A DNA stretch of 64,000 nucleotides. Origin: Squalus acanthias. Taxonomy: Eukaryota. A program made the translations under genes and the position numbers. The notes below the pieces were generated by a model. That model was not told the origin of the DNA, did not search any database, and worked only from the letters and a program-made list of their open reading frames with translations. Location of the stretch: positions 2,916,001-2,980,000 of the forward strand of contig JASTWF010000033.1 in NCBI GenBank assembly GCA_030390025.1, read 5' to 3'. Below, in pieces: positions 10,321 to 46,589 of this stretch (position 1 is its first letter; each line of letters opens with the position of its first letter).

Positions 10321-10742
10321 AAGTGGGTGCAGGAACAGATGGACCCGGGGGTACATGTACCAAAATCATTGAAGGTGGCAGGGCAGGTTGAGAAAGCGGT
10401 TAAAAATGCTTACTGGAATCTTAGGTTTATAAATAGAGGCATAGATTACAAAAGCAAAGAAGTTATGATAAACATTTATGAAACATTGGTTCGGCCACAA
10501 CTGGAGTATTGTGTCCAATTCTGGGCACCGCATTTTAGGAAAGGGCATGAAGGCTTTAGAGAGGGTGCAGAAAAGATTCACACGAATGTTTCCAGGGATG
10601 AGGGACTTCAGTTATGTAGATATACTCGAGAAGCTGGGGTTGTTCTCAGCAGAACAGAGAAGATTGAGAGGAGATTTGATAGAGGTGATCAAAATCATTA
10701 GGGTTCTAGTCAGAGTAGACAGAGCATATAGATAGAAGCTGT

Positions 10743-17437: not shown

Positions 17438-20365
17438 ATTTGACCGGTCCCGGGGGTTTGACCGGTCCCAGGGGTATGACTGGTCCCGGGAGTTTGACCG
17501 GTCCCGGGGGTTTGACCGGTCCCAGGGGTGTGACCGGTCCCGGGGGTGTGACCGGTCCCGGGGGTTTGATTGGTACCGGGGATTTGACCGGTCCTGGGAG
17601 TTTTACCCGTCCCAGGGGTTTGACCGGTCCCAGGGGTGTGACCGGACCCGGGGGTGTGACCGGTCCCGGGGGTTTGAACGATCCCGGGGGTTTGACTGGT
17701 CCCGGGGTTTGACTGGTTCCGGGTGGTTGACCGGTCCCGGGGTTTCACCGGTCCCGGGGGTTTGACCGGTCCCAGGGGTGTGACCGGTCCCGGGAGTTTG
17801 ACCGGTCCCGGGGGTGTGACCGGTCCCGGGGGTTTGATCGGTACCGGGGATTTGACCGGTCCCGGGAGTTTGACCCGTCCCGGGGGTTTGACCGGTCCCA
17901 GGGGTGTGACCGGACCTGGGGGTGTGACCGGTCCCGGGGGTTTGAACGATCCCGGTGGTTTGACTGGTCCCGGGGTTTGACTGGTTCCGGGTGGTTGACC
18001 AGTCCCGGGGTTTCACCAGTCCCGGGGGTTTGACCGGTCCCAGGGGTGTGACCGGTCCCGGGAGTTTGACCGGTCCCGGGGGTTTGACCGGTCCCAGGGG
18101 TGTGACCGGTCCCGGGGGTGTGACCGGTCCCGGGGGTTTGACTGATCCCGGGGGTTTGACTAGTTCCAGTTGGTTGACCAGTCCCGGGGGTTTCACCGGT
18201 CCCGGGGGTGTGACCGGTCCCAGGGGTGTGACCAATCCCCGGGGGTTTGAACGTTTCCGGGATTTTGACTGGTCCCGGGGGATTGACCGGTCCCGGGGGT
18301 TTGACCAGTCCCGGGGGTTTGATCGGTCCTGGGGGTTTGACCGGTCCCGGGGGTTTGACTGGTACCGGGTGGTTGACCGGTCCCGGGGGTTTGACCAGTC
18401 CCGGGGGTTTGACCAGTCCTGGGGGTTTGACCGGTCACGGGGGTTTCACCGGTCCCGGGAGTTTGACCGGTCCCGGGGTTTGACCCGTCCCGGGGTTTGA
18501 CCGGTCCCGGGGTTTGACTGTTCCAGGGGGTATGACTGGTCCAGGGGGTGTGACTGGTCCCGGGGGTGCAAACAGTCCCGGGGGTGTAACCGGTCCTGGT
18601 GGTTTGACCAGTCCCGGGGGAATGACCAGTCCCGGGGGTTTGACCGGTACCCAGGGTTTGACCAGTCCCGGGGGTTTGACCAGTCCCGGGGGTTTGAACG
18701 ATCCCGGGGGTTGACTGGTCCCGGGGGTGTGACCAGTCCCGGGGGTTTGACCAGTCCCGGGGGTTTGACTGGTCCCGGGGGTGTGACCAGTCCCGGGGTT
18801 TGACAGGTCCCGGGGGTTTGACCAGTCCCGGGGGTTTGACCGGTCCTGGGGGTTTGACCAGTCCCGGGGGTTTGACCAGACCCGGGGGTTTGACCAGTCT
18901 CGGGGGTGTTACCTGTCGTGGGGGTGTGACCGGTCCCAGGGGTGTGACCGGTCCCTGGGGTTTGACTGGTCCCGGGGCTGTGACCGGTCCCGGGGGCTTG
19001 ACCGGTCCCGGGGGTTTGACCAGTCCCGGGGGTGTTACCTGTCGTGGGGGTGTGACCGGTTCCGGGGTTGTGACCGGTCCCTGGGGTTTGGCTGGTCCCA
19101 GGGCTGTGACCGGTCCCGGGGGCTTGACCGGTCCCGGGGTATTACCAGTCCCGGGGTTTGACAGGTCCAGGGGATTGACCAGTACCGGGGGTTTGACCGG
19201 ACATGGGGTATTGACCGGTCCCTGGGGTGTGACCGGTACCGGGGATGTGACCAGTCCCGGGGGTGTGACCGGTCCCGGGGGTTTGACCAGTCCCGGGGGG
19301 TGTGACCGGTCCCGGGGGTTTGACCGGTCCCGGGGGTATGACCGGTCCCGGGGGTTTGACCGGTCCCGGGGGTTTGACCGGTCCCGGGGGTTTGACCGGT
19401 CCCGGGGGTTTGACCGGTCCCGGGGGTTTGACCAGTCCCGAGGGGTTTGACCGGTCCCGGGAGTTTGACCCATCCCTTTGTTTTGACCTGTCCCGGCGTT
19501 TGACCGGTCCCGGGAGTTTGACCAGTCCCGGGGTTTGTCCGGTCCCAGGGTGTGACCGGTCCAGTGGGTGTAAACAGTCCCGGGGGTGTGACCAGTCCCA
19601 GTTGTTTGACCTGTCCCGGGGGATTGACCAGTCCCAGTTGTTTGACCGGTCCCGGTGGTTTGACCAGTCCCGGGGGTTTGACCAGTACCGGGGGTTTGAC
19701 CTGTCCCCGGGGGTTGGACTGGTTCCGGGGGTTTGACCTGTCCTGGGTGTTTGACCGGCCCCGGGGATTTGACCGGTCCCGGGGGTTTGACCGGTCCCAG
19801 GGGTTTGACCGCTCCCAGGGGTTTGACCGGTCCCGGGGGTTTGACCAGTCCCGGGGGTTTGACCAGTCCCGGGGGTGTGACCGGTCCCGGGGGTCTGACC
19901 AGTCCGGGGGTTTGACCTGTCCCGGGGGGGTTTGACCAGTCCTGGGGGTTTGACCGTTCCCGGGTATTTGACCGGTCCACGGGGATTTGACCAATCCCGG
20001 GTGTTTGACCAGTCCCGGGGATTTGACCAGTCCCGGGGGTTTGACCAGTCCTGGGGGTGTGACCTGTCACGGTGGTTTGACCAGGCCAGGGGGTTTGACC
20101 GGGCCCTGGGGGTTGTCCGGTTCCGGGGCTTTGACCGGTCCTGGGGTGTGTTGCCGCACCCGGGGGTTTGATCTGTCACGGGGGTTTGACCAGGCCAGGG
20201 GGTTTGACCGGGCCCTGGGGGTTGTCCGGTTCCCGGGCTTTGTCCGGTCCTGGGTTGTGTGGCCGCACCCGGGGGTTTCACCGGTCCCAGGGGTTTGACT
20301 GGTCCCGGAGGGTTGACCGGTCCCGGGAGTGTGCCCGGTCCCGGGGGTTTGACAGGTCTCGGGGG
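17438..20365. repeat. GC-rich 18-bp minisatellite array, consensus TTGACCGGTCCCGGGGGT
   Basis: About 160 degenerate units with internal palindromes GACCGGTC and CCCGGG. A ~270-bp higher-order block recurs at ~17450, ~17760 and ~18030. Confidence 0.95.
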
Positions 20366-20409: not shown

Positions 20410-21620
20410 AACATAGAAACATAGAAGATAGGAGCAGGAGTAGGCCATTCAGCCCCTCGAGCCTGCTCCGCCATCCGATGAGTTCATGGCTAATCATCCA
20501 AACTCAATTCCCAGTACCTGCCTTCTCCCCATATCCCTTGTTAACTTTAGCTGTAAGAAATATATCTAACTCATTCTTTAATATATTTAATGACTTGGCC
20601 TCAACTACCTTCTGTGGTAAAGAATTCCACAGGTTCACCCCTCTCTGGGTGAAGAAATTCTTCATCATTTCTGTCCTAAATGGCTTACCCCTTATGCTTA
20701 GATTATGACCACTGGTTCTGGACTTTCCGACCATCGGGAACATTCTTCCTGCATCTAGTTTGACCAGACCTGTCAGAATTTTATATGTTTCGATGAGATC
20801 CCCTCTCATTCTTCTATACTCCAGCGATTATAAGCCCAATCGACCCAATCTCTCCTCATATGTCATTCCTGCCATCCCAGGTATCAGCCTTGTGAATCTT
20901 TGCTGAACTCCTTCCATGGCAAGAACATCCTTCCTCAGAGAAGGCGACCAAAACTGCACACAGTACTCAAGGTGTTGTCTCACCAAGGCACTGTACAACT
21001 GCAGCAGGACATCCCTGTTCCTATACTCAAACCTTTTCGCTATGAAGGCCAACATACCATTTGACTTCTTCACCGCCTGCTGCACCTGCATGCTCACCTT
21101 CAGCGACTGGTGCGCAAGGACACCCAGGCCTCGTTGCACTTCCCCTTCCCCCAATCTATTGCCATTCAGATAATAGTCTGCCTTTCTGTTTTTGACACCA
21201 AAATGGATAACCTCGCCTTTATCCATGTTATGTTGCATCTGCCACGCTTCTGCCCACTCACCCAACCTGTCCAAATCATCCTGGTGTTTCTCAGTATCCT
21301 CCTCGGAGCACACACGCCCATCCAGTTTTGTGTCATCTGCAAACTTGGAGGTATTAGATTTAGTTCCCTTATCCAGATCATTAATGTATATTGTGAATAG
21401 CTGGGTTCCAAGGACCGATCACTGCGGCACCCCACTCGTCACTGCCTGCCACTCGGAAAAAGACCCATTAATTCCTACTCTCTGCTTTCTGTCGCCCAAC
21501 CAATTCTCTATCCAAGTCAATACCTTGCCCCCAATCCCATGTGCCTTAACTTTACACGCTAATCTCTTATGCGGGACCTTATCGAAAGCCTTTTGAAATT
21601 CCAAATACACCACATCCACT
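20410..21620 (-). mobile_element. CR1 LINE, 5'-truncated
   Basis: Minus ORFs with [14 protein letters not shown] and LEYCVQFWSP. 3' hairpin at ~20430-20500. Confidence 0.92.
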
Positions 21621-21948
21621 TGACCCCAGGTTTCGATCCATGGGGGGTTTCGGGCGATGGGTAGAGTTTGGGGGGTGGGGGGGCAAAATCATTCCCGAGG
21701 CCCAGGAAGCCCGGCCAGCCGTAGTTAAACCTGTAAAACAGGTTAAATCAGAGGCTGCCCGGCTCATTAATATATTTTACTTGCCAACCCGCCTCCTGGG
21801 AGCGGTTCGCTGCCCGCTCTCTGTCCCATCTCAGTTAAACTCGGAAGCGGGCGGGTTGGAGGCTGGTTGGGTTCGGAAGAATATAATTCAATTTTCACCT
21901 CTTACCCGACCCCAATCCGCCGGTTTTTGGGATGTTAAAATCCAGCCC
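21621..21948. mobile_element. Partial MITE-like/palindromic repeat
   Basis: GC-rich island with internal inverted AACCCGCC..GGCGGGTT and a TIR-like end AAAATCCAGCCC. The other end is not visible. Confidence 0.4.
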
Positions 21949-22022
21949 TTACTGTTTGGTCTCAGACACGGAGAATGTGTGATCAGTAATTTCCAGTCTC
22001 TTTTCCCTTCTGTGTTTTACAG

Positions 22023-22930
22023 TGAATTTGCTGGCGATTGTGATCCTGTCCCGGGGAAAGTGCGGGCTCTCCACCTGCACCACTCGCTACCTGGTGGCCA
22101 TGGCAGCGGCGGATCTCCTGCTCATTGTCACTGAGGTCATACTGGGGCGGATCAGATGGTTTTATTTCCCAGTGTCTTTCCTGGACATCACCCCTGTGTG
22201 TAGTGTTCGCACTGTCCTGTCTCGTGCAGCCACAAACTGTTCTGTCTGGTTCACCGTCACTTTCACCTTTGATCGATTTGTGGCCATTTGTTGCCAGAAG
22301 CTGAAAACAAAATATTGCACCAAGAAAACAGCAGCTGTGGTTCTGGGAACAAGCTGCATTCTGCTCTGTTTAAAAAACGTTCCCCACTACTTTACAATTC
22401 AACCCAGGGTGATAATCGGCAATGTGCCGTGGTTCTGTGCTACAATCCCAAACTATTTTACGGAGCCCGGGTGGTTGGGATTGAACTGGTTTGATAAGTT
22501 TTTAACCCCATTGCTGCCATTCGCTTTAATTCTGTTGCTCAACGCTCTGACAGTCAGACACATTTTAGTGGCCAGTCGGGTCCGTAAGGGACTGAGGGGT
22601 GAGAGCAAGGGAGAGAATGGCAGAGACCCAGAGATGGAGAGCAGAAGGAAGTCTATGATTTTACTCTTCACCATATCCGGCAGCTTCATACTGCTGTGGC
22701 TGCCCTATGTTATATATTTCTTATTTTATAATATTACAGGAACCAATCCCCGCTATTACACTGGTTCTTTATATATCTTTTCACAAGTCGGTTTTATGCT
22801 GCGGAATTTAAGTTGCTGCACAAACACATTTATTTATGGGGTGACCCAGTCCAAGTTCAGAGAGCAGGTGAAGAAGGCGGTGAAATTTCCGCTTAACTCA
22901 ATTATTCAATTAATTAATAATCAGAAATAA
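22023..22930 (+). CDS. Main coding exon of a class A (rhodopsin-like) GPCR, GPR139/GPR142-like family
   Basis: Uninterrupted frame to TAA, with TM1(part)-TM7, AAADLL, FTFDRFVAIC, LLWLPY and CCTNTFIY. Preceded by a polypyrimidine tract and TACAG acceptor (phase 1). The N-terminal exon was not found. Confidence 0.9.
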
Positions 22931-23477: not shown

Positions 23478-24965
23478 TAACATAGAAGATAGGAGCAGGA
23501 GTAGGCCATTCGGCCCCTCGAGCCTGCTCCGCCATTCGATGAGATAATGGCTGATCATCCAAACTCAGTACCCTGTACCTGCCTTCTCCCCATATCGCTT
23601 GATACCTTTAGCTTTAAGAAATATATCTATCTCATTCTTCAATATATTTAATGACTTGGCCTCAACTACCTTCTGTGGTAGAGAATTCCACAGGTTCACC
23701 ACTCTCTGGGTGAAGAAATTCCTCCTCATTTCTGTCCTAAATGGCTTACCCGTTATCCTCAGATTATGAACCCTGGTTCTGGACTCTCCGACCATCGGGA
23801 ACATTCTTCCTACATCTAGTTTGTCCAGACCTGTCAGAGTTTTATATGTTTCGATGAGATCCCCTCTCATTCTTCTATACTCCAGCGAGTATAGGCCCAA
23901 TCGACCCAATCTCTCCTCATATATCATTCCTGCCATCCCAGGTATCAGCCTTGTGAATCTTCGCTGAACTCCTTCCATGGCAAGAACATCCTTCCTCAAA
24001 TAAGGCGACCAAAACTGCACACAGTACTCAAGGTGTGGTCTCACCAAGGCCCTGTACAACTGCAGCAGGACATTCCTGTTCCTATACTCAAACCCTTTCG
24101 CTATGAAGGCCAACATTCCATTTGCCTTCTTCACCGCCTGCTGCACCTGCATACTAACTTTCAGCGACTGGTGCACAAGGACACCCAGGTCTCGTTGCAC
24201 TTCCCTGTCTCCTAATCTATTGCCATTCAGATAATAGGCTGCCTTTCTGTTTTTGACACCAAAGTGGATAACCTCACTCTTATCCACGTTATATTGCAAC
24301 TGCCTCGCTTCTGCCCACTCACCCAACCTGTCCAAATCATCCTGGTGTTTCTCGGTATCCTCCTCGCAGCACACACTCCAACCCAGCTTTGTGTCATCTG
24401 CAAACTTGGACATATTACATTTAGTTCCCTTATCGAGACCATTAATGTATATTATGAATAGGTGGGGTCCAAGGACCGATCCCTACGGTACCCCACTAGT
24501 CACTGCTTGCCACTCAGAAAAAGACCCATTAATTCCTACTCTCTGCTTTCTGTCTGCCAACCAGTTCTCTATCCAAGTCAATACCTTGCCCCCAATCCCA
24601 TGTGCCTTAATTTTACACGCTAATCTCTTATGCGGGACCTTATCGAAAGCCTTTTGAAAGTCCAAATACACCACCTCTACTGGTTCTCCCCTATCTATTT
24701 TCCCAGTTACATCCTCAAAAAATTCCAGTAGATTAGTCAAGCACGATTTACCTTTTGTAAATCCATGTTGACTTTGTCCGATCCTGTCACTGTTTTTCAA
24801 GTGCTCAGCTATTACATCCTTTATGATGGACTCTAGCATTTTCCTTAATACCGATGTCAGGCTTACCGGTCTGTAATTCCCTGCTTTCTCTCTGCCACCC
24901 TTTTTGAATAGTTGGGTAACATTAGCTACCCTCCAATCCATGGGTACCGTTCCAGATTCCATCGA
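23478..24965 (-). mobile_element. CR1 LINE, 5'-truncated, inserted into an older CR1 3' fragment (~23280-23478 and ~24965-25240)
   Basis: ORFs 23565..24413 and 24483..24992 are CR1 RT. Confidence 0.93.
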
Positions 24966-25259
24966 ATGTAGTGAGGTCCACATTCTAGCCACTCTGAGTA
25001 CAGAAATTGCTCTTTATTTCCAATTGAATTTATTAGTAAATATCTTGTATTTATGACCCCAAGTGTTGCATTCTCCCACAAGTGTAAACATTCTCTCCAC
25101 ATCTACCCTGTCCAACCCATTCATAATTTTCAAGATCTCTATCAGGCCTCAGCAAAGTCCTCTCTCTTCTATAGCAGAAAGGCCCAACCTGTTCAATCTT
25201 TCCCGATAGTTGCAATCTTTCAGTTCTGGTGCCATCCACCTAATTATTTGTAAGAACGA

Positions 25260-26069: not shown

Positions 26070-27186
26070 GTATTTTTTGCACTTTCTCCAGTTCTTCTAT
26101 GTCCTTTTTATATTATGGAGACCATAACTCTGCACAGTTCTCTAAGTGTGACGTGACCCGGGTCCTATACATGTTTAATACAATTTACAAAGTATTTACA
26201 GGTCAGAGACAGGCCATTCGACTCAAAATGTCCATGTTGGTGTCCATGCTCCACACGACCCTCCACCCACCCTCCTTCATCTAACCCAGTAAAAATATCA
26301 TTCTATTCCTTTCCCCCTTTAAATGTGTCTGTGCTATTCGCATCAACTACTCCTTGTGGTAGCGAGTTCCACATTCTGACCACTCATTCGGTAAAAAGTT
26401 TTCTCGTGAATTCCCTAATAGATTTATTAATGACTATCTTAAATCTATGGCCCCGAGTTCTAGTCTCTCCTGAAAGTGGAAACACCTTCTCTAATCTACC
26501 CTATGAAACCCTTTCATAATCTCAAAGAACTCTATCTGATCATCCCTCAGTCTTCACTTTCCTAAAGAAAAGAGCCCCAGCCTGTTCAGTCTTTCCTGAC
26601 AGGTATAACCTCTCAGTTGTGGTATCATTGTAGTAAATACTGTTTGTACTTTCGCCAGTCCCTCTATGTCCTTTTTATAAGATGGAGACCATGTTCGCAG
26701 TACACCAAGTGTGGTCTAACCAAGGTTCCATACAAGTTTAACATAACTTCTATTCTTTACAATTCTATCCCTCTAGAAATGAACCCCAGTGATTTCTTTG
26801 TTTTTATGGCCTTATCAACCTGCATTGCAACTTTTAGTGATTTATGTAACTGTATCCTCACATCGCTCTGTCCCTCAACCCCGTTCAGAACTTATTCTCC
26901 AAGGAGTCTGTGACCTCCGTATTCTTCCTATTAAAATGCACTACCTCGCATTTCTCTATATTGAGGTTAATTTGCCAGTTACACACCCATTCTGCAAGTT
27001 TATTAACGTCCTCCTATATTTTGTCACAGTCCTCCTCTATATTAAGTATAAACTCCCATTTGGGTGGCATCCGCAATGTTTGAAATTGCACTTCCGATTC
27101 CTGAGTCCTAATTGTTGAAGTAAATGGTGAACAAAAGTGTTGCCAGCACCGATCCTTGTGAAACACCACTTCCCACCACTGGCCAA
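26070..27186 (-). mobile_element. Old CR1 fragments (ERV target site)
   Basis: SGVSQGSVLATLLFTIYFNN on the minus strand and a degenerate CR1 3' end. Confidence 0.75.
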
Positions 27187-27760
27187 TGTTGGAGTAAAAG
27201 TGAGATGGTTACCTGAAACAAAATGGACTCTGTGGAACAAAATGGACTCTGTGGAACAAAATGGACTCTGTGGAACAAAGGGACTCTGTGAAACAAAATG
27301 GACTCTGTGGAACAAAATGGACTCTGTGGAACAAAATGGACTCTGTGGAACAAAATGGACTCTGTGGAACAAAATGGACTCTGTGGAACAAAGGGACTCT
27401 GTGGAACAAAGGGACTCTGTGAAAATACATTAAAATGTGCTGACTAACCTTGAGCTACATCCTGTCATTGCATGAAACTACAGAACAGACAAAAGCCAGA
27501 CCACCAAGGTCCAGATAACGGTTGTTCTTAAAGGAATGTAATTGGAGGTCATTGTTGCTAGGGGGGAATAATTGGCTAAAGTGTAACTAACCAAGACTGC
27601 TGTGCTTGTGGAATGTATAAAAAGAAGCACAACAGCCATTTTAAAATTGAGAAGGTGACTGCGTGCACTGCGGAGTGCCAAGCACTTCTCCCAAAGCTTT
27701 GTTCAATAAACTGCATGTTGAATCTTTAAGTCTGACTCCGAGTGGTGATTTCCCACAACA
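27187..27760 (+). repeat. 5' LTR (574 bp)
   Basis: TGTTG..CAACA. 11 copies of a 19/18-bp U3 repeat, TATAAAA 27616-27622, AATAAA 27705-27710. Confidence 0.95.
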
Positions 27761-27763
27761 AAT

Positions 27764-27781
27764 TGGCGCTGCGAGCAGGGT
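27764..27781 (+). promoter_or_regulatory. Primer-binding site, probably tRNA-Ser
   Basis: TGGCGCTGCGAGCAGGGT, 3 nt after the LTR. From memory it is complementary to vertebrate tRNA-Ser (TGA/CGA) 3' ends with about one mismatch. Confidence 0.75.
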
Positions 27782-28311
27782 CTCACTGCTGGTGAGTTGA
27801 TCGGTTGGCCTCGATCGGCGAACTGGAGTAGAGACTATTGAACTGTGGAAGTCAGACTGAGCCAACAATGCAGTTAAAAACGGGTGAAAATTAGGGGAAT
27901 TTATGGGACTATCGGATAGAAACAGGAATTGATTGCTTGTGCTGATCGACTAAGGACAAGGAGGTGCCTGTCTCAAACGCGCAGCCTTAGACCGGTTGTT
28001 AAGAGGGGAAATCCCCCACGCGATGGTCAGGACCATAAAGTGGGCGTAGAGACACCAACGCACTTAGGACGGTGAAGCACAAGTAGTAAGGACCATTCGG
28101 CATCAAACTTTGTAGTGGCGAACAAACGCAGAGGTACATAAAGTATAAGAATTCGCGAGTGTGTACTGTCTGTAGTTTTAAGCGGTGCGGTAAGGAGCTG
28201 ATCACCCTGACCTAGAGACGGACTCCGGTGGAGGAAAGACGTTGCTGAGACGGTAATCGTGGCCGTGAGTATAAACAGAAACCCCAACGAGGGGGTTTAA
28301 AAGCCAGACAG

Positions 28312-28598
28312 ATGGGGAAACTAAGTGGGGACCTGCGGGTTCCCTTATTGATAAATATATGAAAGACAGACACTCGTTGATTAAGAAGATGCAAAAGGAT
28401 GGCTGGGATGTTTCCCAGACATTAGAACAACAGAGAAAGTGGGTAGATGGGGAAAAGAAAGACAAAACAAAAAAAGCAGGGGTATTATTAGTACATCAAT
28501 TAGCTGGACTAATGGGACAAGTAGCCGGTTCCACTAAAAAGTGGAACGAAGACAAGCACAACATTAAGAAATTAGAATCTAGGGTAAAGGAATCTTAA
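28312..28598 (+). pseudogene. Possible gag N-terminal remnant
   Basis: Position ~550 bp after the PBS. An ATG-GGG start, then a frameshifted Lys-rich ORF 28359..28598. No diagnostic motif. Confidence 0.4.
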
Positions 28599-30392
28599 AA
28601 GGAATGCTGGGATCTAAGTTTGGGTGGTAGTTTTCCTGACTGTGAATGTTTAAGGAGTTGCAGTATTTCTTTTGTCTGAAAGTCTGTCTTTAAAAAAGTA
28701 TCTGTCATTTATGTTTTAACTCCACCCACTCTTTAGTACAGAGAGCTAAAAGCTGTTTAACCCTTTGAAGACTTGTTTTGAATGACGGACAAGTGTGTTG
28801 TTTTAAGTTTGTTAATTGTTTTACAAAAGATAAGCTTCAGCCTTGAAGTCACAGTTTGCCAATGTGCCTGGAAGAAAATGAATTTGAATGTTTACAAGGC
28901 ATGGGTAATTGTTTCTTTGTTAGTGTGTTTTTTTTTCTTTTCCAAGCGATACTGGTTAGTTTAAAAAAAAACTGATCGAGATTGAATTGGAGTTATTGAG
29001 GTTAATTAACCTATTAAAACCAGACTTTTATTGTGCACGGTGAAATTCTGGTTGGTGTAAATTTGTGTAGACCACATTGAATAAGATATTTAATGGTCTG
29101 AAACCAGACTTTAAAATATTTACAGTCTTGGATACAGAACGGGTTCTGGTCCATACCATTGGCAGAGGAATCACAGGGGAAATTCGCCTTTACTGTCAGG
29201 GATAGACAGGAATTTTATATCAGACTTTGCAGGGAAAGCAGAGCCGATTCAACAGTTAGTTAAAGAGGTGTTTGGCTGCAATAGATTGTGCCACAAGAAT
29301 TGAAAAAAAAACTTTGAACTACAATTTAAGTTAAGCTGCTGTGTAAAACTTAGAAGAACAAAAAGTTTGTTTAACAAAAGATTAAGTTTCGGTCTAAGAT
29401 TTAACCTTGGAGTCGCGGTTGCTATGGTGAAATCTTCCAAAGCAGTTTGATTTGATTTGCTTAAATGTGAAAAACTAATTTTTCTCCAGTTATATTCAAT
29501 GTTTTTGCAGTATTTTGGAAAGGCATCTGAAGAAAGGACAATAAGAAATATGATGTAATTTATGGCTTTCTACAAGCATGTACTAGTTTGTTTTGTTTTA
29601 TCTGTTCATGTTCAGTTACGTGAAATGATGCAATTGCGTGCGTCTGACAATGTTTCGCTCCACCTTCTTAAAAAAAAAACCTGCAAAGGAGTTAACCCTT
29701 TCCACGGACAGCTGTTTAAGTTTTAAAAATGAAATTGATCATTGACAAAACCTGTCAGTTCAACAGTACTGCTGTTTGGATTTCGGGATAATTTTGAAAT
29801 GACAAAATGGACTCAGGCACTATATATTGGGTTACTTTTGGGAAAAATAAAAGATCCTCTAAAATAATGATAAATAAAAAGTGTTAATAACTTGGACCAA
29901 GTGAGAATGTTTGATCTATGTTTTCAATCTTAAATATTGTACTGGACAGTAAAGTTCCTCCAGGGCTCATGAATGAGATATGAATGGTAATTAGTAGGAT
30001 GTGTAAAATGGAGAATGGAAGTGATTGAGGGTGAGATAGAAACAGGAGAATTACACCACCAATTGAGAATTTTCCAAACTTCTCAGTGAATAGAGTTGAA
30101 CACACTGGTACCTGTTAGAGGGATTGAAATTGAAGTTGAAGTGGAGAGTTACATGGAATCTGGATTGGGACAATTGAGGGCTAAGGAGAAATCATGTTTA
30201 GTAAGAATTATCCACAAGATGGATATGAGTAAAAGAGAGATCTGGAGAATTTTTTAAGTCCATGATTTGTTGACTAGATGTTAAATTGTAATGTCGCTTG
30301 TAATGATTGTAAGACTGAATTTAACTGTGACTGTAATAATTGTGTTTTGTAGGTAACAGAGCGTGGGGAAAACCAGTACGAATCCAGTATGA

Positions 30393-30790
30393 GGTGATTT
30401 TGGTGGTGCCTCCTGTGTCACCACTACCGCAATTACCATGCTTTATGGGTCTAACAGGACCTGTCCCATCAACCAACACGTTTTTAAGTATGAGCTACAC
30501 AATTATGTGGCACAATTCGGATACCACATTCCCCTGTCGTCTAAGGGTACCAGTGAGCTCATGATGCGACTGAACTCCTCCCTAAAGCATTGTTATGTTT
30601 TGGAGGAAGACAACTCGAGAATAGATATTGAAATTGACAGCATAGAGGACAACTCACACTGGTGGGATATTGGGCTTAATATATCAGCACACCCTTAGAT
30701 CTGTATTATTTCACACGCTCTGGTAGTTCTCCAACTTGTAATGATAGTGTATTTGATATATGTAACCAATGTAGTAAGATACATAAGCCA
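30393..30790 (+). pseudogene. Env-like membrane glycoprotein C-terminal remnant upstream of the integrase
   Basis: GDFGGASCVTT..NRTC..NSS..HWWDIGLNIS, one TAG, then hydrophobic ICIISHALVVLQLVMIVYLIYV. Three N-glycosylation sequons. Confidence 0.55.
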
Positions 30791-31595
30791 ATTAAAAGAT
30801 TACACAAGGACACCCCGCCTGGAGAAAAGCAGGGCTGGTATCGTGTAGGAGGCAGAGAAGATGACGAAGGGATTTGCGGAAAAACGGGAAAGTAATAGCC
30901 CCCGTTTTCATTCGGCAAACGCTCTTGAACTTACACCACGGCAGTGACCACACTGGAAGGGGGGCAATGATTCATTTAATAGAACAAGAATGGTGGTGGC
31001 CAGGTGTAGGGAGGGATGTAGCAAAATACTGTCAGAGGTGCCTAACGTGTGCACAATATAATCCAGGACGGCCGGTAAAAATACAGATGGCCCATCAGCC
31101 AAGACCAAGGGGTGCCTGGGAAAAGATACAAATAGACTTTACGGGACCCCTACCAATGCCCGCAGTCCTGATGCAATTAAGAGCTATCCCTAATCAAACG
31201 ACAGGCTTATCTCCCTATGAATTAATGACAGGGCGAGCAATGCAACTCCCTTATGGAATTATAACAGGAGGAGAGGAACTAGAACCCTTACAGGACAGGA
31301 TCCTCCGGTATGTCCTTGAATTAAGCAAGCAGTTAAAAGAAATGAGACAGCAGGTTAGAGAAAGACAAGAAGAAAAGGATAAAAATTTAGACTTGACTGC
31401 GTTAACAAACGTTCCCTCTTCAGGAACGAAAGTAATGGTTAAGGTCCTGCCGCAAAGCAGGGGTTTGCCCCAAGGTGGTCCGGTCCTTATCAAGCCCTTA
31501 TCAGTGGAGACACGTGTGCCTGTATTGATATAAAGGGAATGGGAAGGTGGAAACACTGGACCTAGCTAAAGACCTATAACCCTTCACCAGTGTAG
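30791..31595 (+). pseudogene. Integrase remnant with deleted catalytic core
   Basis: HHGSDH..CQRCLTC zinc domain. WEKIQIDFTGPLP is joined directly to LMQLR..TGLSPYELMTGR. The shifted-frame C-terminus has PRWSGPYQ..WKHWT. Confidence 0.88.
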
Positions 31596-31836
31596 AAATG
31601 GACGCAACAAAACAAATACTGGGTATAAGGAGTGAGGAAGAGTGGATACCGTATACAGAATGGGAATGGCCCCATGTAAGGGGATTGGTCTGGGCATTAA
31701 TTAAAGGTGACCAGGAGTGGGTACGGTGGTGCAACCTTCGCGTATGGGACGTGGAACCTCGGTACAATTCCAAACATGACCAGTGGGGGGCCATGGTAGG
31801 GTAAAATCATGATAATGAATAACATATGGAGTAGGT

Positions 31837-32510
31837 TTGAAGCCTATAATAACACTTACTTCATTGGGGTATGTCGTACCCTTTGTACATCACTGCCTAA
31901 ACCTCAAGGAACACCCAGCCTATCGTTATAAACGAGAGATTGCTGAGGCTGTAAGATACTTCACGATCTATCTACCCCCATACGGAGTCACGAGAGCTAT
32001 TAAAGAGATACGGTTGATGGCAGAGGTTTTAGAACAGGTTGGGAATGATACAGCAGAAGCTCTAATAGACATTAACGCCGAGATGGTAGCGATAAGGACA
32101 GTGACGCTACAGAACCGAATGGCACTTGATTACCTCCTCGCAGAAAAAGGGGTACATGTGCATTGATTGGGACAGAGTGCTGTACATACATTCCTGACAG
32201 TTCAGAAAATATAATTGATTTGGCTGAGCACATACAGAGGGAAGTTCGGAAGTTACACGAAACCGCAGGGGCAAACTGGTGGGAATGGTTGTTTGGGGGA
32301 TCATGGGGTTCTTCTTTAATGCATGGACTAATTATTCTTGTTGTGATAATAATTGCTTGTTGCTTGATTATCGGATGTTTTAATATCTGCTGTAAAGTCA
32401 TGATCGCTCGGATTGTGCCAGGGGCCAGCGTGGTCACCGAGGAAGAACATCTAATGGGAACACCCGAAGACGCCAAGGAAGGAGAGGGCGACCTAGACAG
32501 GTACCTGTGA
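31837..32510 (+). pseudogene. env: Gamma-type env TM subunit remnant
   Basis: Furin site RYKR, ISD LQNRMALDYLLAEKG, CX6CC (C-ALIGTE-CC across a frameshift), transmembrane segment. SU is almost entirely missing. Confidence 0.9.
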
Positions 32511-32631
32511 AGAGTGACTTGGAGTTATATGTGTGGAACACCAGGGAGGTGGATTCCCCAAAGGCTGTATATATATATATACACATAGAGGTCGTTTGGT
32601 CATCTGGATTTCGTGAACATCCTCCAGGACC

Positions 32632-32642
32632 AAAAGGGGGAA
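32632..32642 (+). promoter_or_regulatory. Polypurine tract
   Basis: AAAAGGGGGAA immediately before the 3' LTR. Confidence 0.85.
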
Positions 32643-32643
32643 T

Positions 32644-33106
32644 TGTTGGAATAAAAGTGAGATGGTTACCTGAAACAAAATGGACTCTGTGGAATAAAAT
32701 GGACTCTGTGGAAAAAAATGGACTCTGTGGAACAAAATGGACTCTGTGGAACAAAATGGACTCTGTGAAAAGACATTAAAATGTGCTGACTAACCTTGAG
32801 CTACATCCTGTCATTGCATGAAACTACAGAACAGACAAAAGCCAGACCACCAAGGTCCAGATAACAGTTGTTCTTAAAGGAATGTAATTGGAGGTCATTG
32901 TTGCTAGGGGGGAATACTTGGCTAAAGTGTAACTAACCAAGACTGCTGTGCTTGTGGAATGTATAAAAAGAAGCACAACAGCCATTTTAAAATTGAGAAG
33001 GTGACTGCGTGCACTGCGGAGTGCCAAGCACTTCTCCCAAAGCTTTATTCAATAAACTGCATGTTGAATCTTTAAGTCTGACTCCGAGTGGTGATTTCCC
33101 ACAACA
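32644..33106 (+). repeat. 3' LTR (463 bp)
   Basis: Matches the 5' LTR except that it has 5 rather than 11 U3 repeats and a few substitutions. Confidence 0.95.
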
Positions 33107-33282
33107 CCAACTGCACTTCTTTTGAATTCTATTGCCTTAGAAATAAACCCCAATTCATTGTTAACATTTTAATTGCTTTGCTGTCCAGTGATACTGCTAT
33201 TAATTATTTGTTCACCTTTATCCCGAGAGCCCTTTTCTCTTCTGCCACGTTCAGTTTCTTATTTTCTAAGGTATCGGTGATT

Positions 33283-34860: not shown

Positions 34861-35227
34861 ATCACCTCGCGTTCATCTCTGTTAATGGTCACTTGTCACT
34901 TAACTGCGCAGTCTGTATGTTTTCTAAAGTCTATTGTGAGATGTCATGTAGAGAAATGTCTTTTAAATTTTGGAAGCAAAGCATCCGTGTATTGAATAAA
35001 AAACAACAATAATTAATAAAGGCAGCCATCTAAAACTGTGTGTGGTTTTGCAATTTTATAATAAAATCTGAGGATTTATTGCAAAGTAAACTCTTGGCTT
35101 CTCACATTGCACCACTGCTTTTCGAAGAAGTTGCTGAAGATATTATTTATTTCAAATAACAGAACTGCTCTCCTGTTTGCTTTAGGCTCCCTTAGTGACT
35201 TCCGATATATGCATCGAACATCGTAAA

Positions 35228-38200
35228 CTCCTCCCCACCCCATCTAATATCCTCAGCTCCTCTCCACCCAACCTAATATCCTCAGCTCCTCCCAAACCCA
35301 CCTAATATGCTCAGCTCCTCCTGAACCCACCTGATATCATCAGCTCCTCCCAACCCCACCTAATATCCTCAGCTCCTCCCCACCCCACCTAATGTCCTCA
35401 GCTCCTCCCCACCACATCTAACATCCTCAGCTTCACCAAACTCCACCTAATATCCTCAGCTCCACCCCACCCCACCTAATATCCTCAGCTCCTCCCCACC
35501 ACACCTAATATCCTCAGCTCCGCCCGACCCCACCTAATATCCTCAGCTCCTCCCCACCCCACCTAATACCCTCAGCTCCTCCCCACCCCACCTAATATCC
35601 TCAGCTCCTCCTCACCTCACCTAATATCCTCAGCTCCTCCCCACCCCACCTAATATCCTCAGATCCACCCCACCCCACCTAATATCCTCAGCTCCTCCCC
35701 ACCCCACCTAATATCATCAGCTCCTCCCCACCACACCTAATATCCTCAGCTCCTCCCCACTCCACCTAATATCCACAGCTCCTCCCCACCCCGCCTAATA
35801 TCCTCAGCTCCCCCCCACCCCACCTAATATCCTCAGCTCCGCCCCACCTATTATCGTCAGCTCCTCCCCGCCAAACCTAATATCCTGAGCTCCACCCCAC
35901 CCCAACTAATATCCTCAGCTCCCCCCAATCCACCTAACATCCTCAGCTCCTCCCCACCCCATCTAATATCCTCCGCACCTCCACTCCACACCTAATATCC
36001 TCAGCACCTCCTCACAACACCATATATCCTCAGCTCCTCCCCAACCCACCTAATATCTCATCTTCTTTCCACCCCAAATAATATCACCAGCTCCGCCCCA
36101 ACCCAACTAATATCCTCAGCTCCTCCCCACCCCACCTAATATCCTCAGCTCCACCCCACCCCACCTAATATCCTCAGCTCCTCCCCACCCCACCTAACAT
36201 CCTCAGCTCCTCCACACCCCACCTAATATCCTGCGCTCCTACCCACCCCACCAAATATCCTCAGCTTCTCTCCACGCCACCTAATATCCTCAGCTCCTCC
36301 ACACCCCACCTAATATCCTCAGCTCCTCCCCATCACAGCCAATATCCTCAGCTCCTCCCCACCCCACCTAATATCCTCAGCTCCTCCCCACCCCACCAAA
36401 TATCCTCAGCTCCTCCCCACCCCACCTAATATCCTCAGCTCCTCCCCACCCCACCTAATATCCTCAGCTCCTCCCCAACCCACCTAATATCCTCAGCTCC
36501 TTCCCACCCCACCTAATATCCTCAGCTCCTCCCCACCCCACCTAATACCCTCAGCTCCTCCTGAACCCACCTAATATCCTCAGCTCCTCCCCAACTCACC
36601 TGATAGTCTCAGCTCCTCTCCATCCCACCTAATATCCTCAGCTCCTCCTGAACCCACCAAATATCATCAGCTCCTCCCCACCACAACTAATATCCTCAGC
36701 TCCTCCCCACCCCACCTTATATCCTCAGCTCCTCCACACCCCACCTAATATCCTCCGCACCTCCACTCCCCACCTAATATCCTCAGCACCTCCCCACAAC
36801 ACCATAAATCCTCAGCTCCTCCCCAACCCACCTATCATCCTCAGCTCCTCCCCAACCCCCCTAATATCCTCAGCTCCTTCTCACCCCACCTAATATATCA
36901 TCTCCTTCCCACCCCAACTAATATCCTCAGCTCCGCCCCACACCACCTAATATTCTCAGCTCCTCCAAACCCCACCTAATATCCTCAGCTCCTCCCCAAC
37001 CCACCTAATATCCTCAGCTCCTCCCCACCCCACCTAATATCCTCAGCTCCTCCCAACCCACCTAATATCCTCAGCTCCTCCCCACCCCACCCCACCTAAT
37101 ATCTTCAGCTCCTCCCCACCCCACCTAATATTCTCAGCTCCTTCCCACCCGACCTAATATCCTCAGCTCCTCCCCACCCCACCTAATATCCTCAGCTCCT
37201 CCCCACTCCACCTAATATCCTCTCCTCCTCCCCACCCCACCTAATATCCTCAGCTCCTCCCCACCCCACCTAACGTCCTCAGCTTCTCCCCACCCCAACT
37301 AATATCCTCAGCTCCTCCCCCCCCACCTTCTATCCTCAGCTCCTCCCCATAACACCTAATATCCTCAGCTCCTCCCCAACACACATAATATCCTCAGCTC
37401 CTCCCCATCCCACCTAATATCCACAGCTCCTCCCCACTCCACCTAATATCCTCTCCTCCTCCCCACCCCACCTAATATCCTCAGCTCCTCCCCACCCCAC
37501 CTAACGTCCTCAGCTTCTCCCCACCCCAACTAATATCCTCAGCTCCTCCCCCCCACCTTCTATCCTCAGCTCCTCCCCATAACACCTAATATCCTCAGCT
37601 CCTCCACACCCCACCTAATATCCTCAGCTCCTCCCCACCCAACCTAATATCCTCAGCTCCTCCCCACCCCACCTAATATCCTCAGCTCGTCCCCACCCCA
37701 CCTAATATCCTCAGCTCCTCCCCACCCCACCAAATGTCCTCAGCTCCTCCCCACCCCACCTAATATCCTCAGCTCCTCCCCACCCCACCTAATATCCTCA
37801 GCTCCTGCCCGCTCCACCTAATATAATCAGCTCCTCCCCACCCTACCTAATATCCTCAGCGCCTCCCCACTCCACCTAATATCCTCAGCTCCTCCCCACC
37901 CCACCTAATATCCTCAGCTCTCCCCCACCCCACCGAATATCCTCAGCTCCTCCCCACCCCACCTAATAGCCTCTGCACCTCCCCTCCCCACCTAATATCC
38001 TCAGCTCCGCCCCACATAATATCATCAGTTCATCCCCGCCAAACCTAATATCCTCAGCTCCACCCCACCTCAACTAATATCCTCAGCTCCCCCCAACGCA
38101 CCTAACATCCTCAGCTCCTCCACACCCCACCTAATATCCTCAGCTCCTCCACACCCTACCTAATATCCTCCACACCTCCACTCCACACCTAATATCCTCA

Positions 38201-41200
38201 GCACCTCCCCACAACACCATATATCCTCAGCTCCTCCCCACCCCACCTAACATCCTCAGCTCCTCTCCACCCCACCTAATATCTCATCTCCTTTCCACGC
38301 CAACTAATATCACCAGCTACGCCGCAACCCACCTAATATCCTCAGCTCCTCCTCACACACCTAATATCCTCAGCTCCTCCCCACCCCACCTTATATCCTC
38401 AGCTCCTCCCCACCACACCTAATATCCTCAGCTCCGCCCCACCCCACCTAATATCCTCAGCTCCTCCCCACCTCACCTAATATCCTCAGCTCCTCCACAC
38501 CCCACCTAATATCCTCAGATCCTCCACACCCCACCGAATATCCTCAGCTCCTCCCCACCACACCTAACATCCTCAGCACCGGCCCACCCTACCTAATATC
38601 CGCAGCTCCTCCCCACCCTACCTAATATCCTCAACTCCTCCACACCTCACCTAATATCCTCAGCTCCTCCCCACCTCACCTAAAATCCTCAGCTCCTCCC
38701 CACCCCACCTAATATCCTCAGCTGCTCCCCACCCCAACTAATATCCTCAGCTCCTTCCCATCCCACCTAATATACTCAGCTCCTCCCCACCCCACCTAAT
38801 AACCTCAGCTACACCCCACCAAACCTATTATCCTCAGCTCACCCCCACCCAACCGAATATCCTCAGCTCCTCCCCAGCACACCTAATATCCTCCGCACCA
38901 CCCCTCCCCACCTAATATCCTCAGCACCTCCCTAAACACCATATATCCTCAGCTCCTCCCCACCCCACCTAACATCCTCAGCTCCTCCCCACCCCACCTA
39001 ATATCCTCAGCTGCTCCCCACCCCAACTAATATCCTCAGCTCCTCCCCACCCCACCTAACATCCTCAGCTCCTCCACACCTAACCTAATATCCTCAGCTC
39101 CTCCACACCCCACCTAATATCCTCCGCACCTCCACTCCCCACCTTATATCCTCAGCACCTCCCCACAACACCATAAATCCTCAGCTCCTCCCCAACCCAC
39201 CTAACATCCTCAGCTCCTCCCCAACCCACCTAATATCCTCAGCTCCTTCTCACCCCACCTAATATCCTCAGCTCCTCCCCAACCCACCTAATATCCTCAG
39301 CTCCTCCCCACCCCACCTTACATCCTCAGCTCCTCCCCACCCCACCTAATATCCTCTGCTCCTCCTGAACCCACCTAATATCCTCAGCTCCTCCTGAACC
39401 AACCTAATATCCACAGCTCCTCCCCACCCCACCTAATATCCTCAGCTCCTCCACACCCCACCTAATATCCTCAGATCCTCCACACCCCACCTAATATCCT
39501 CAGCTCCTCCCCACCACACCTAATATCCTCAGCTCCTCCACACCCCACCTAATATCCACAGCTCCTCCCCACTCCACCTAATATCCTCTCCTCCTCCCCA
39601 CCCCACCTTATATCCTCAGCTCCTCCCCACCCCACCTAACGTCCTCAGCTTCTCCCCACCCCAACTAATATCCTCAGCTCCTCCCCCCCCACCTTCTATC
39701 CTCAGCTCCTCCCCATAACACCTAATATCCTCAGCTCCTCCACACCCCACCTAATATCCTCAGCTCCTCCCCACCCAACCTAATATCCTCAGCTCATCCC
39801 CACCCCACCTAATATCCTCAGCTCGTCCCCACCCCACCTAATATCCTCAGCTCCTCCCCACCCCACCAAATGTCCTCAGCTCCTCCCCACCCCACCTAAT
39901 ATCCTCAGCTCCTCCCCACCCCACCTAATATCCTCAGCTCCTCCCCGCTCCACCTAATATACTCAGCTCCTCCCCACCCCACCTAATATCCTCAGCGCCT
40001 CCCCACTCCACCTAATATCCTCAGCTCCTCCCCACCCCACCTAATATCCTCAGCTCTCCCCCACCCCACCGAATATCCTCAGCTCCTCCCCACCCCACCT
40101 AATATCCTCTGCACCTCCCCTCCCCACCTAATATCCTCAGCTCCGCCCCACATAATATCATCAGTTCATCCCCGCCAAACCTAATATCCTCAGCTCCACC
40201 CCACCTCAACTAATATCCTCAGCTCCCCCCAACGCACCTAACATCCTCAGCTCCTCCACACCCCACCTAATATCCTCAGCTCCTCCACACCCCACCTAAT
40301 ATCCTCAGCTCCTCCCCAGCACACCTAATATCCTCCGCACCACCCTTACCCACCTAATATCCTCAGCACCTCCCTAAACACCATATATCCTCAGCTCCTC
40401 CCCACCCCACCTAACATCCTCAGCTCCTCCGCACCCAACCTAATATCCTCAGCTCCTCCACACCCCACCTAATATCCTCCGCACCTCCACTCCCCACCTT
40501 ATATCCTCAGCACCTCCCCACAACACCATAAATCCTCAGCTCCTCCCCAACCCACCTAACATCCTCAGCTCCTCCCCAACCCACCTAATATCCTCAGCTC
40601 CTTCTCACCCCACCTAATATCTCATCTCCTTCCCACCCCAACTAATTTCCTCAGCTCCGCCCCACCCCACCTAATATTCTCAGCTCCTCCAAACCCCACC
40701 TAATATCCTCCGCTCCTCCCCACCCCACCTAATATCCTCAGCTCCTCCCCAACCCACCTAATATCCTCAGCTCCTCCCCACCCCACCTAATATCCTCAGC
40801 TCCTCCCCAACCCACCTAATATCCTCAGCTCCACCCCACCCCACCTTACATCCTCAGCTCCTCCCCACCCCACCTAATATCCTCTGCTCCTCCTGAACCC
40901 ACCTAATATCCTCAGCTCCTCCTGCACCAACCTAATATCCACAGCTCCTCCCCACCCCACCTAATATCCTCAGCTCCTCCACACCCCACCTAATATCCTC
41001 AGATCCTCCACACCCCACCTAATATCCTCAGCTCCTCCCCACCACACCTAATATCCTCAGCACCGGCCCACCCCACCTAATATCCGCAGCTCCTCCCCAC
41101 CCTACCTAATATCCTCAACTCCTCCACACCCCACCTAATATCCTCAGCTCCTCCCCACCTCACCTAAAATCGTCAGCTCCTCCCCACCCCACCTAATATC

Positions 41201-44200
41201 CTCAGCTGCTCCCCACCCCAACTAATATCCTCAGCTCCTTCCCATCCCACCTAATATACTCAGCTCCTCCCCACCCCACCTAATAACCTCAGCTACACCC
41301 CACCAAACCTATTATCCTCAGCTCACCCCCACCCAACCTAACATCCTCAGCTCCTCCCCAACCCACCTAATATCCTCAGCTCCTTCTCACCCCACCTAAT
41401 ATCTCATCTCCTTCCCACCCCAACTAATATCCTCAGCTCCGCACCACCCCACCTAATATTCTCAGCTCCTCCAAACCCAACCTAATATCCTCCGCTCCTC
41501 CCCACCCCACCTAATATCCTCAGCTCCTCCCCAACCCACCTAATATCCTCAGCTCCTCCCCACCCCACCTAATATCCTCAGCTCCTCCCCAACCCACCTA
41601 ATATCCTCAGCTCCTCCCCACCCCACCCCACCTAATATCTTCAGCTCCTCCCCACCCCACCTAATATCCTCAGCTCCTTCCCACCCGAACTAATATCCTC
41701 AGCTCCTCCCCACCTCACCTAATATCCTCAGCTCCTCCCCACCCCAACTAATATCCTCAGCTCCTCCCCACCCGACCTAATATCCTCAGCTCCTCCCCAT
41801 CCCACATAATATCCGCAGCTCCTCCCCATCCCACCTAATATCCTCAGCTCCTCCCCACCCCACCTAATATCCTCTCCTCCTCCCCACCCCACCTAATATC
41901 CTCAGCTCCTCCCCACCCCACCTAACGTCCTCAGCTTCTCCCCACCCCAACTAATATCCTCAGCTCCTCCCCACCCCACCTAATATCCTCAGCTCCTCCC
42001 CATAACATCTAATATCCTCAGCTCCTTCCCACCCCACCTAATATCCTCAGCTCCTCCCCACCCAACCTAATATCCTCAGCTCCTCCCCACCCCACCTAAT
42101 ATCCTCAGCTCCTCCACACCCCACCTAATATCCTCAGCTCCTCCCCACCTGACATAATATCCTCAACATCTCCCCAACCCACCTAATATCCTCAGCTCCT
42201 CCCCACCCCATCTAATATCCTCAACTCCTCCCCACCCCATCTAATATCCTCAACTCCTCCACACCCCACCTAATATCCTCCACACCTCCACTCCACACCT
42301 AATATCCTCAGCTCCTCCCCACAACACCATATATCCTCAGCTCCTCCCCACCCCACCTAACATCCTCAGCTCCTCTCCACCCCACCTAATATCTCATCTC
42401 CTTTCCACGCCAACTAATATCACCAGCTCCGCCGCAACCCACCTAATATCCTCAGCTCCTCCTCACACACCTAATATCCTCAGCTCCTCCCCACCCCACC
42501 TTATATCCTCAGCTCCTCCCCACCACACCTAATATCCTCAGCTCCGCCCCACCCCACCTAATATCCTCAGCTCCTCCCCACCCCACCTAATATCCTCAGC
42601 TCCTCCACACCCCACCTAATATCCTCAGATCCTCCACACCCCACCTAATATCCTCAGCTCCTCCCCACCACACCTAATATCCTCAGCACCGGCCCACCCC
42701 ACCTAATATCCGCAGCTCCTCCCCACCCTACCTAATATCCTCAACTCCTCCACACCTCACCTAATATCCTCAGCTCCTCCCCACCTCACCTAAAATCCTC
42801 AGCTCCTCCCCACCCCACCTAATATCCTCAGCTGCTCCCCACCCCAACTAATATCCTCAGCTCTTTCCCATCCCACCTAATATACTCAGCTCCTCCCCAC
42901 CCCACCTAATATCCTCAGCTACACCCCACCAAACCTATTATCCTCAGCTCACCCCCACCCAACCGAATATCCTCAGCTCCTCCCCAGCACACCTAATATC
43001 CTCCGCACCACCCCTCCCCACCTAATATCCTCAGCACCTCCCTAAACACCATATATCCTCAGCTCCTCCCCACCCCACCTAACATCCTCAGCTCCTCCAC
43101 ACCCAACCTAATATCCTCAGCTCCTCCACACCCCACCTAATATCCTCCGCACCTCCACTCCCCACCTTATATCCTCAGCACCTCCCCACAACACCATAAA
43201 TCCTCAGCTCATCCCCAACCCACCTAACATCCTCAGCTCCTCCCCAACCCACCTAATATCCTCAGCTCCTTCTCACCCCACCTAATATCTCATCTCCTTC
43301 CCACCCCAACTAATATCCTCAGCTCCGCCCCATCCCACCTAATATTCTCAGCTCCTCCAAACCCCACCTAATATCCTCCGCTCCTCCCCACCCCACCTAA
43401 TATCCTCAGCTCCTCCCCAACCCACCTAATATCCTCAGCTCCTCCCCATCCCACCTAATATCCTCAGCTCCTCCCCAACCCACCTAATATCCTCAGCTCC
43501 TCCCCACCCCACCTTACATCCTCAGCTCCTCCCCACCCCACCTAATATCCTCTGCTCCTCCTGAACCCACCTAATATCCTCAGCTCCTCCTGAACCAACC
43601 TAATATCCACAGCTCCTCCCCACCCCACCTAATATCCTCAGCTCCTCCACACCCCACCTAATATCCTCAGATCCTCCACACCCCACCTAATATCCGCAGC
43701 TCCTCCCCACCCTACCTAATATCCTCAACTCCTCCACACCCCACCTAATATCCTCAGCTCCTCCCCACCTCACCTAAAATCCTCAGCTCCTCCCCACCCC
43801 ACCTAATATCCTCAGCTGCTCCCCACCCCAACTAATATCCTCAGCTCCTTCCCATCCCACCTAATATACTCAGCTCCTCCCCACCCCACCTAATAACCTC
43901 AGCTACACCCCACCAAACCTATTATCCTCAGCTCACCCCCAACCAATCTAACATCCTCAGCTACTCCCCAACCCACCTAATATCTCATCTCCTTCCCACC
44001 CCAACTAATATCCTCAGCTCCGCACCACCCCACCTAATATTCTCAGCTCCTCCAAACCCCACCTAATATCCTCCGCTCCTCCCCACCCCACCTAATATCC
44101 TCAGCTCCTCCCCAACCCACCTACATCCTCAGCTCCTCCCCAACCCACCTAATATCCTCAGCTCCTTCTCACCCCACCTAATATCTCATCTCCTTCCCAC

Positions 44201-46373: not shown

Positions 46374-46589
46374 CGATGTTTCCTCGAATTTTTTTGCACT
46401 GAGCGGCCATGAACTCCTTTGTGCGACCTTTTCGTCCGTCGGCAAATTTTACAACAACAAATTTTAGAACAACTTTTAGAAAAGCAAGTTTTACAACAGC
46501 GACAACAACAACAACCAGTTAAAATTATATATACAGTAATGAGATATTGTAACCCCATCATCTCAAATCAATGGACAATCAGACAAGAT

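Follow-up and report, generated by a model that had tools for sequence, protein, structure and literature searches.

Mosaic endogenous retroviruses (ERVs) are already known. Among human ERVs (HERVs), recombination and secondary integration are described as common, with few cases that cross classes, and defective recombinants are reported to reintegrate with the aid of helpers (Vargiu et al. 2016, PMC4724089). Template switching, in the form of copy choice between co-packaged RNAs, underlies env recombination in MuLV, FeLV and MMTV (PMC10536682), and in anamniotes, where ERVs with a gamma-type Env occur in cartilaginous fish among others, recombination between Env and Pol is described as frequent (Chen et al., bioRxiv 10.1101/2021.11.23.469661). 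Envelopes of the F type are widespread among invertebrate gypsy elements (PMC13524379). The lokiretroviruses, defined by a reverse transcriptase (RT) that is sister to those of the sampled retroviruses, have the order gag–pol–env, and the accessible text of Wang and Han (PMC7947760) lists five vertebrate classes, cartilaginous fish not being among them. A mosaic that unites two Env classes was not found in print: the literature searched, at the level of main texts, held no provirus that combines an F-like env with a gamma-type one, and the accessible text of PMC8672886 yielded no two-envelope element.

The provirus described here lies in a 64,000-nucleotide stretch of Squalus acanthias DNA (contig JASTWF010000033.1, positions 2,916,001–2,980,000), which we call the window and in whose coordinates all features are given. 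A sequence-only reading had proposed that an ERV at this place holds remnants of two unrelated envelope genes, one (envA) upstream of integrase and the other (envB) in the normal 3′ position, and that the order points to a dual-envelope or recombinant lineage. The provirus is young and bounded, spanning 5.9 kb between two copies of a 4-bp target duplication, CCAA, at 27183–27186 and 33107–33110 (no strand assigned). Its LTRs, each of the form TG...CA, occupy 27187–27760 and 32644–33106 on the plus strand, as do the internal features given below. They are about 99% alike and differ at just 4 of the 367 bases outside a 19-bp tandem array, from which we conclude that the insertion is young. The array itself has 10.9 copies of its unit in the 5′ LTR (27217–27421) and 4.9 in the 3′ LTR (32674–32767); its copy number was altered during or after integration. 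Downstream of the 5′ LTR are a primer-binding site beginning TGG (27764–27779), which we take to resemble the 3′ end of tRNA-Ser, and a leader (27780–28305) assigned by contig depth to a low-depth family; a polypurine tract lies at 32632–32642. The interior reads, in order, gag start, AT-rich stretch, envA remnant, integrase remnant and gamma-type envB remnant. RT is absent, and both envelope genes are broken remnants, neither of which is able to yield a fusogen or other working protein. The closest named relatives of the encoded proteins come from two sharks, Pristiophorus japonicus and Heptranchias perlo.

The provirus seems to sit inside a LINE-like remnant, presumably CR1/L2, whose decayed RT frames (RVT_1) are seen on the minus strand at 23565–25013, with similar frames at 20504–21688 and around the provirus. 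About 4 kb upstream, at 21983–22930 on the plus strand, is a single-frame gene for a seven-transmembrane receptor (Pfam 7tm_1, E 3e-21). Elsewhere in the window are a satellite of about 11 kb with a 29-bp period and an extreme GC skew of −0.85 (approximately 35100–46500), a GC-rich tandem array of 163 copies of an 18-bp unit that is the source of long Pro/Gly open frames (17439–20365), and a large near-perfect inverted duplication (10736–13137) whose arms, 841 nt (97%) and 361 nt (96%), enclose an 87-nt spacer.

What the sequence-only reading had marked as a doubtful gag is indeed gag. The remnant, at 28308–28598 with its stop at 28596–28598, is 64–71% identical to the gag proteins P0011 and P0012, and the homology ends at 28592, which corresponds to residue 120 of the 454-residue CCHC gag P0012. 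In public-run contigs from relatives (see below), leader contigs exit the window sequence at 28305 and gag contigs enter it at 28307, which indicates that this copy has a gap at the start of gag. The homology gives way to an AT-rich, non-coding part (28593–30392) recognised by its composition, depth and homology. Its GC content is 0.346 against 0.46 in the flanks; taken between the two joins described below, the figure is 0.36, with 0.46 outside on both sides. The AT-rich part holds no LTR copy, no purine tract of at least 11 bases and no Rfam match. Over 28593–30790, the search for an LTR-size internal repeat or a purine tract was likewise negative, an unrelated decayed LTR being of a kind that could escape detection. 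Two short frames, at 29991–30254 and 31580–31801, have no Pfam match, and a 17-bp repeat at 28393 and 28597 is taken as chance.

At 30340–30352 there is a putative splice-acceptor-like site, TTGTGTTTTGTAG, and beyond it lies envA (30393–30790), identified from protein homology and contigs. The frame is open over 30393–30698, its last codon being an in-frame stop (30696–30698), and comprises a Cys-containing strand region, a heptad region, a Trp motif (HWWD, 30657–30668) and, past the stop, a hydrophobic membrane helix of 22 residues (30699–30764; best Kyte–Doolittle 19-mer 2.49). The tests applied to the translation thus found a membrane-proximal heptad region, a Trp motif and a membrane anchor, and neither an ISD nor a CX6CC motif. 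The lesions are a gap, in frame and about 31 residues long, near 30484–30491, the one stop, and a tail cut at about 30790; the last 20 or so codons of the frame (30791–30848) are pol read out of frame. Every feature described by the sequence-only reading, from the acceptor-like site to the motifs of envB, is at the place it gave. Its three sequons do start at 30453, 30573 and 30678, but none is kept in any of the five relatives that could be aligned; since they are not diagnostic, we have dropped them as evidence.

Searches with 30393–30790 as query, X replacing the stop at 30696–30698, retrieved seven relatives at E≤0.001 among 1.84 billion representative sequences, the best at 3.8e-13. Six of these relatives scored 31–61 bits, whereas the best of 1000 shuffles (578–822 of which scored per query) reached 6.9 bits, so that none equalled the real score. 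We conclude from the relatives and the shuffles that envA is more than chance. A pairwise E of 0.38 between envA and envB shows the two to be unrelated, and the proposal of a viral-type, non-gamma envelope remnant distinct from envB is borne out. The suggested comparison of the read-through translation with viral glycoproteins had a divided outcome. Direct searches of Pfam, PDB sequences and the Atlas gave no match to a viral family, bacterial porin-like Atlas rows (0.87–0.90, low recognition) being taken as chance; the connection to F proteins comes instead through the relatives P0007 and P0006.

EnvA aligns with the C-terminal quarter of P0007, a protein of 739 residues in which long helices accompany a basic cleavage site and a membrane anchor. 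When P0007 and a second relative, P0004, were compared with the window by tblastn, the only matches lay at 30405–30815. The remnant therefore represents some 130 of about 740 residues, and the signal peptide, cleavage site and fusion peptide are gone. Residues 200–739 of P0007 score 0.95 against a Fusion_gly/Baculo_F cluster, with 218 of 256 features shared, on a tool whose calibration for parts of proteins was not measured, and all ten of the best named cluster matches of P0007 fall in the Fusion_gly/Baculo_F clan. P0006 matches Baculo_F with an E of 0.0011, below the cut-off, over the very stretch that matches envA. The AlphaFold models of P0007, with pLDDT values of 34 and 43, are too poor for use; Foldseek searches with them gave nothing at E≤0.001, and the non-significant rows of foamy virus and walleye-virus Env and of F proteins are not taken as evidence. 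Nor did a profile of envA find an F protein in the PDB. EnvA is, on the basis of its sequence, the C-terminal piece of a non-gamma glycoprotein. Its assignment to the F-like class of paramyxoviruses and baculoviruses is well supported but indirect, because the structure models are unusable. Two features of the relatives may be recorded alongside. Residues 70–145 or so of P0007 show a weak resemblance to the V domains of antibody heavy chains (E 0.05–0.9). In the gene models P0003, P0006, P0009 and P0010, an F-like env tail is fused to cadherin, F-box, zinc-finger or emp24 domains; these fusions are probably ERV remnants mis-annotated as exons.

The pol remnant (30791–31533), defined by protein homology and contigs, consists of the linker between RNase H and integrase, a frame change near 30865–30895, the integrase zinc finger and the C-terminal part; the catalytic core is missing near 31137–31157. 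The integrase remnant (30865–31533) matches Pfam Integrase_H2C2 with an E of 1.8e-14. Homology begins at 30791, within the linker of P0008 between RNase H and the zinc finger; the linker match, 34 residues long, stands at 26% and is in register with the next match, at 59%. EnvB (31580–32510, its membrane helix and tail running to the end) is a gamma-type remnant with the furin-type cleavage site RYKR before TM (31924–31935), an ISD (32107–32151) and, in another frame, CX6CC (32157–32183), a frame change lying between the last two. Most of SU is missing, and what remains is short and interrupted. The best PDB matches are syncytin-1 (E 0.018), GP2 ectodomains and the TM of ASLV, each weak alone but agreeing as a set; in Pfam, Ebola-like_HR1-HR2 is found at E 0.088 and TLV_coat at E 0.0021, the latter below the cut-off.

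Contigs of public runs were examined over 27760–32645 at 85% likeness, in 4 of the 20 runs listed (X1, X3, X8 and X11). These runs represent relatives rather than the window's own genome, as the best of them contains 0.43 of its words. Depth here means the summed depth of contigs, from which rare forms are lost; it should not be read as a number of copies. With two boundary bins set aside, the median over the 12 inner bins is higher than that over the 16 flank bins by factors of 34, 16, 28 and 9 in X1, X3, X8 and X11, respectively, and in all four runs the lowest inner bin lies above the highest flank bin. In all four runs, coverage of the segment from 28.6 to 30.8 kb thus exceeds that of leader, gag, pol and envB by a factor of 9–34, and leader and envB resemble each other in depth within each run. 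The left edge of the deep segment is uncertain and falls within about 28588–28660.

The right edge is sharper. At 30791–30793, contigs of the envA family stop and those of pol start, with an overlap of 3 bases. Behind 30793 all four runs have loose ends, of 9–21 bases only. Position 30835 is covered by a single contig in each of X3 and X8, and both of these come in at 30791 from unlike sequence, 674 bases of it in X3 and 73 in X8; X1, which has three contigs over the position, and X11 do not show such an entry either way. Among the pieces listed for the four runs, none spans the right join. Further loose ends at 30484, in three of the four runs among those listed, coincide with the gap in envA, and contig breaks at 31136–31157 coincide with the missing integrase core. 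Two contigs (X11#12 and X8#29) run without interruption from the AT-rich stretch through the acceptor-like site to the start of envA. As they join the acceptor region to a C-terminal env piece, the abundant family already carried envA in the form of a remnant.

The left join may be spanned by contig 18 of X3. This sole gag contig of the run is gap-free to 28618, 26 bases beyond the end of gag homology and 31 bases beyond the end of the gag contig of X8, and its depth of 33.9 is about two-thirds of that of the leader (52.8); as a bridge it is borderline under a 31-letter rule. If it does cross the join, the latter would be common in the organism of that run and would predate the present copy; a mosaic sub-lineage that has been amplified would fit, and so would a nested insertion of long standing. 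Some other contigs share only the primer-site region (27764–27781) and a short gag motif (28389–28426) with the window. These contigs, from X3 and X11, probably belong to another, diverged family whose primer site and type of gag are the same, and we read the joint 27781–28389 (side 21) as such a relative rather than as a splice. In X11, which is guessed to be RNA, the leader (27760–28305) has a depth of 95.7 and envB (31699–32525) of 78.8, but gag (28412–28574) only 2; leader and envB without gag is the pattern expected of a spliced env RNA of the gamma-Env family, seen in the contigs of this one run.

Set beside the systems described above, the provirus is closest in form to the mosaic HERVs of Vargiu et al. 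(PMC4724089). Like mosaics such as Harlequin, which are reintegrated with 'midwife' help, it has the LTRs and backbone of one family around an inner piece of another, and it is defective yet apparently copied. Two of the marks by which that account recognises a reintegrated mosaic are present, namely the same LTR at both ends without a third inside, and an inner piece from a different family; on a further mark, recurrence of one mosaic at several loci with different flanks, the contigs offer one possible bridge of the left join and, among those listed, none of the right. The HERV mosaics mostly stay within one ERV class, whereas here the inner piece bears an unrelated class of env and lies upstream of integrase. 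The Env of lokiretroviruses (PMC7947760), set beside the relatives of envA by description, is similarly a retroelement glycoprotein resembling the F protein of paramyxoviruses and pneumoviruses, with a cleavage site, coiled coils and a membrane anchor. In lokiretroviruses, however, the F-like env stands at the 3′ end; in the shark provirus the 3′ env is gamma-type, the F-like piece precedes integrase and RT is missing. By gene order, then, the provirus is not a lokiretrovirus. EnvB shares its ISD, CX6CC motif and membrane region with the gamma-type Env of anamniote ERVs (bioRxiv 10.1101/2021.11.23.469661), but the env replacement described for those elements is at the normal place, and here a second env remnant lies upstream of pol. 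The exchanges in MuLV, FeLV and MMTV (PMC10536682) differ again in being homologous, confined to env and productive of working viruses, whereas the swap in the shark provirus is non-homologous and gag and pol are destroyed.

The anatomy, the two joins, the step in depth and the protein homologies are observed directly. As to the history of the element, we think it probable that a defective provirus arose from the backbone of a low-copy family, B, by replacement of the middle from gag to RNase H with 2.2 kb of a high-copy family with an F-like Env, A, and was then copied in trans. Family B, a shark ERV, would have contributed LTRs, primer site, leader, gag start, pol end and gamma-type env, and would have lost the stretch from about gag residue 120 to the end of RNase H. 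The donor from family A, much more abundant and already deleted, would have brought in the AT-rich stretch and the F-like env tail. The swap may have come about while co-packaged RNAs of A and B were being reverse-transcribed, through two changes of template, as suggested by the 3-base overlap at the right join and by a segment with neither an LTR nor a target duplication around it. The element was presumably broken already at integration and copied in trans by the enzymes of a helper, since the coding lesions, some eight in all, are more numerous than LTRs with a difference of only about 1% would allow. The lesions are the gap at the gag start, the loss from gag to RNase H, the gap and the stop in envA, the frame change in pol, the gap in the integrase core, the loss of SU and the frame change in envB.

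The chief rival would also produce a mosaic, but one formed in chromosomal DNA: a family A element would have inserted into gag of a family B provirus, deletions would later have removed the ends of A and the gag-to-RNase H stretch of B, and the product would have been recopied in trans. The depth step and the joins are equally expected on this account, other deletions are present in the provirus copy, ERV mosaics have been described as arising by secondary integration (PMC4724089), and contig 18 of X3 suggests a left join older than this copy. Two further deletions would be required, however, the segment has the same orientation as the backbone, and the segment and its surroundings showed no trace of an LTR, of a purine tract or of a target duplication. 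With the sequence behind the loose ends unseen, template switching and nested insertion with deletion are indistinguishable by the joins; on the whole we regard the insertion as rather unlikely. An assembly artefact, in which two repeat families were mis-joined in the window, would explain why no listed contig spans the right join and why the share of the words found in a run is 0.43 at most, but the LTRs match, the target duplication is correct, the joins fall at short overlaps and contig 18 of X3 carries window-like sequence past the end of gag, so that an error of this kind is very improbable. Still more remote is an origin of envA from captured host sequence or from a frame open by chance. 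The host-domain names that several relatives bear as gene models, and the lack of a direct match between envA and a viral family in Pfam, PDB or the Atlas, would suit it; against this stand the seven relatives, the shuffle control, a full-length relative that has a basic cleavage site, long helices and an anchor in the membrane and scores with fusion-protein clusters, and the position of the host domains outside the matched stretch.

It is improbable, too, that the layout is ancestral, family B having the order gag, F-like env, pol, gamma-type env, with each env expressed from its own spliced RNA, the abundant family A being a deletion derivative and the present copy having lost the stretch from the envA tail to integrase. 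On that account it would be odd that the start of foreign-looking AT-rich DNA coincides exactly with the cut in gag, at residue 120 of about 454, that envA is already a remnant in family A according to the relatives' contigs, and that no such retrovirus was found in the literature searched. The gene model P0010 from the sevengill shark H. perlo has the normal order, integrase core first and then an F-like env piece; it is an automatic model, 25–40% identical, and represents a distant family rather than the same one. Scans of viral and metagenome contigs yielded no full-length relatives. The main reason for giving the layout any weight is that the left join is possibly bridged at family depth in X3; in addition, all parts lie on the same strand inside one LTR pair, the putative acceptor precedes envA, and the loose ends at 30793 are so short (9–21 bases) that what follows envA in relatives is unseen. 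Of the two alternatives in the sequence-only reading, the recombinant one is thus probably right. The dual-envelope lineage is unsupported: the 2.2-kb piece that bears envA, which behaves as part of a far more abundant family, is joined to the cut end of gag and to the linker between RNase H and integrase.

Were the two-envelope layout true as an autonomous genome, it would be an unreported retroviral arrangement and a direct intermediate in the swapping of envelopes between two structural classes, and both this copy and the abundant AT-rich element would be deletion products of such a lineage. If instead, as we think probable, the provirus is a mosaic, it offers a warning that gene order read from a single defective copy can mislead. 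It would also be modest but real evidence of exchange between ERV families with F-like and gamma-type envelopes in one shark germ line, and such cross-family exchange is the raw step behind the discordance between Env and Pol reported for the retroviruses of fish and amphibians.
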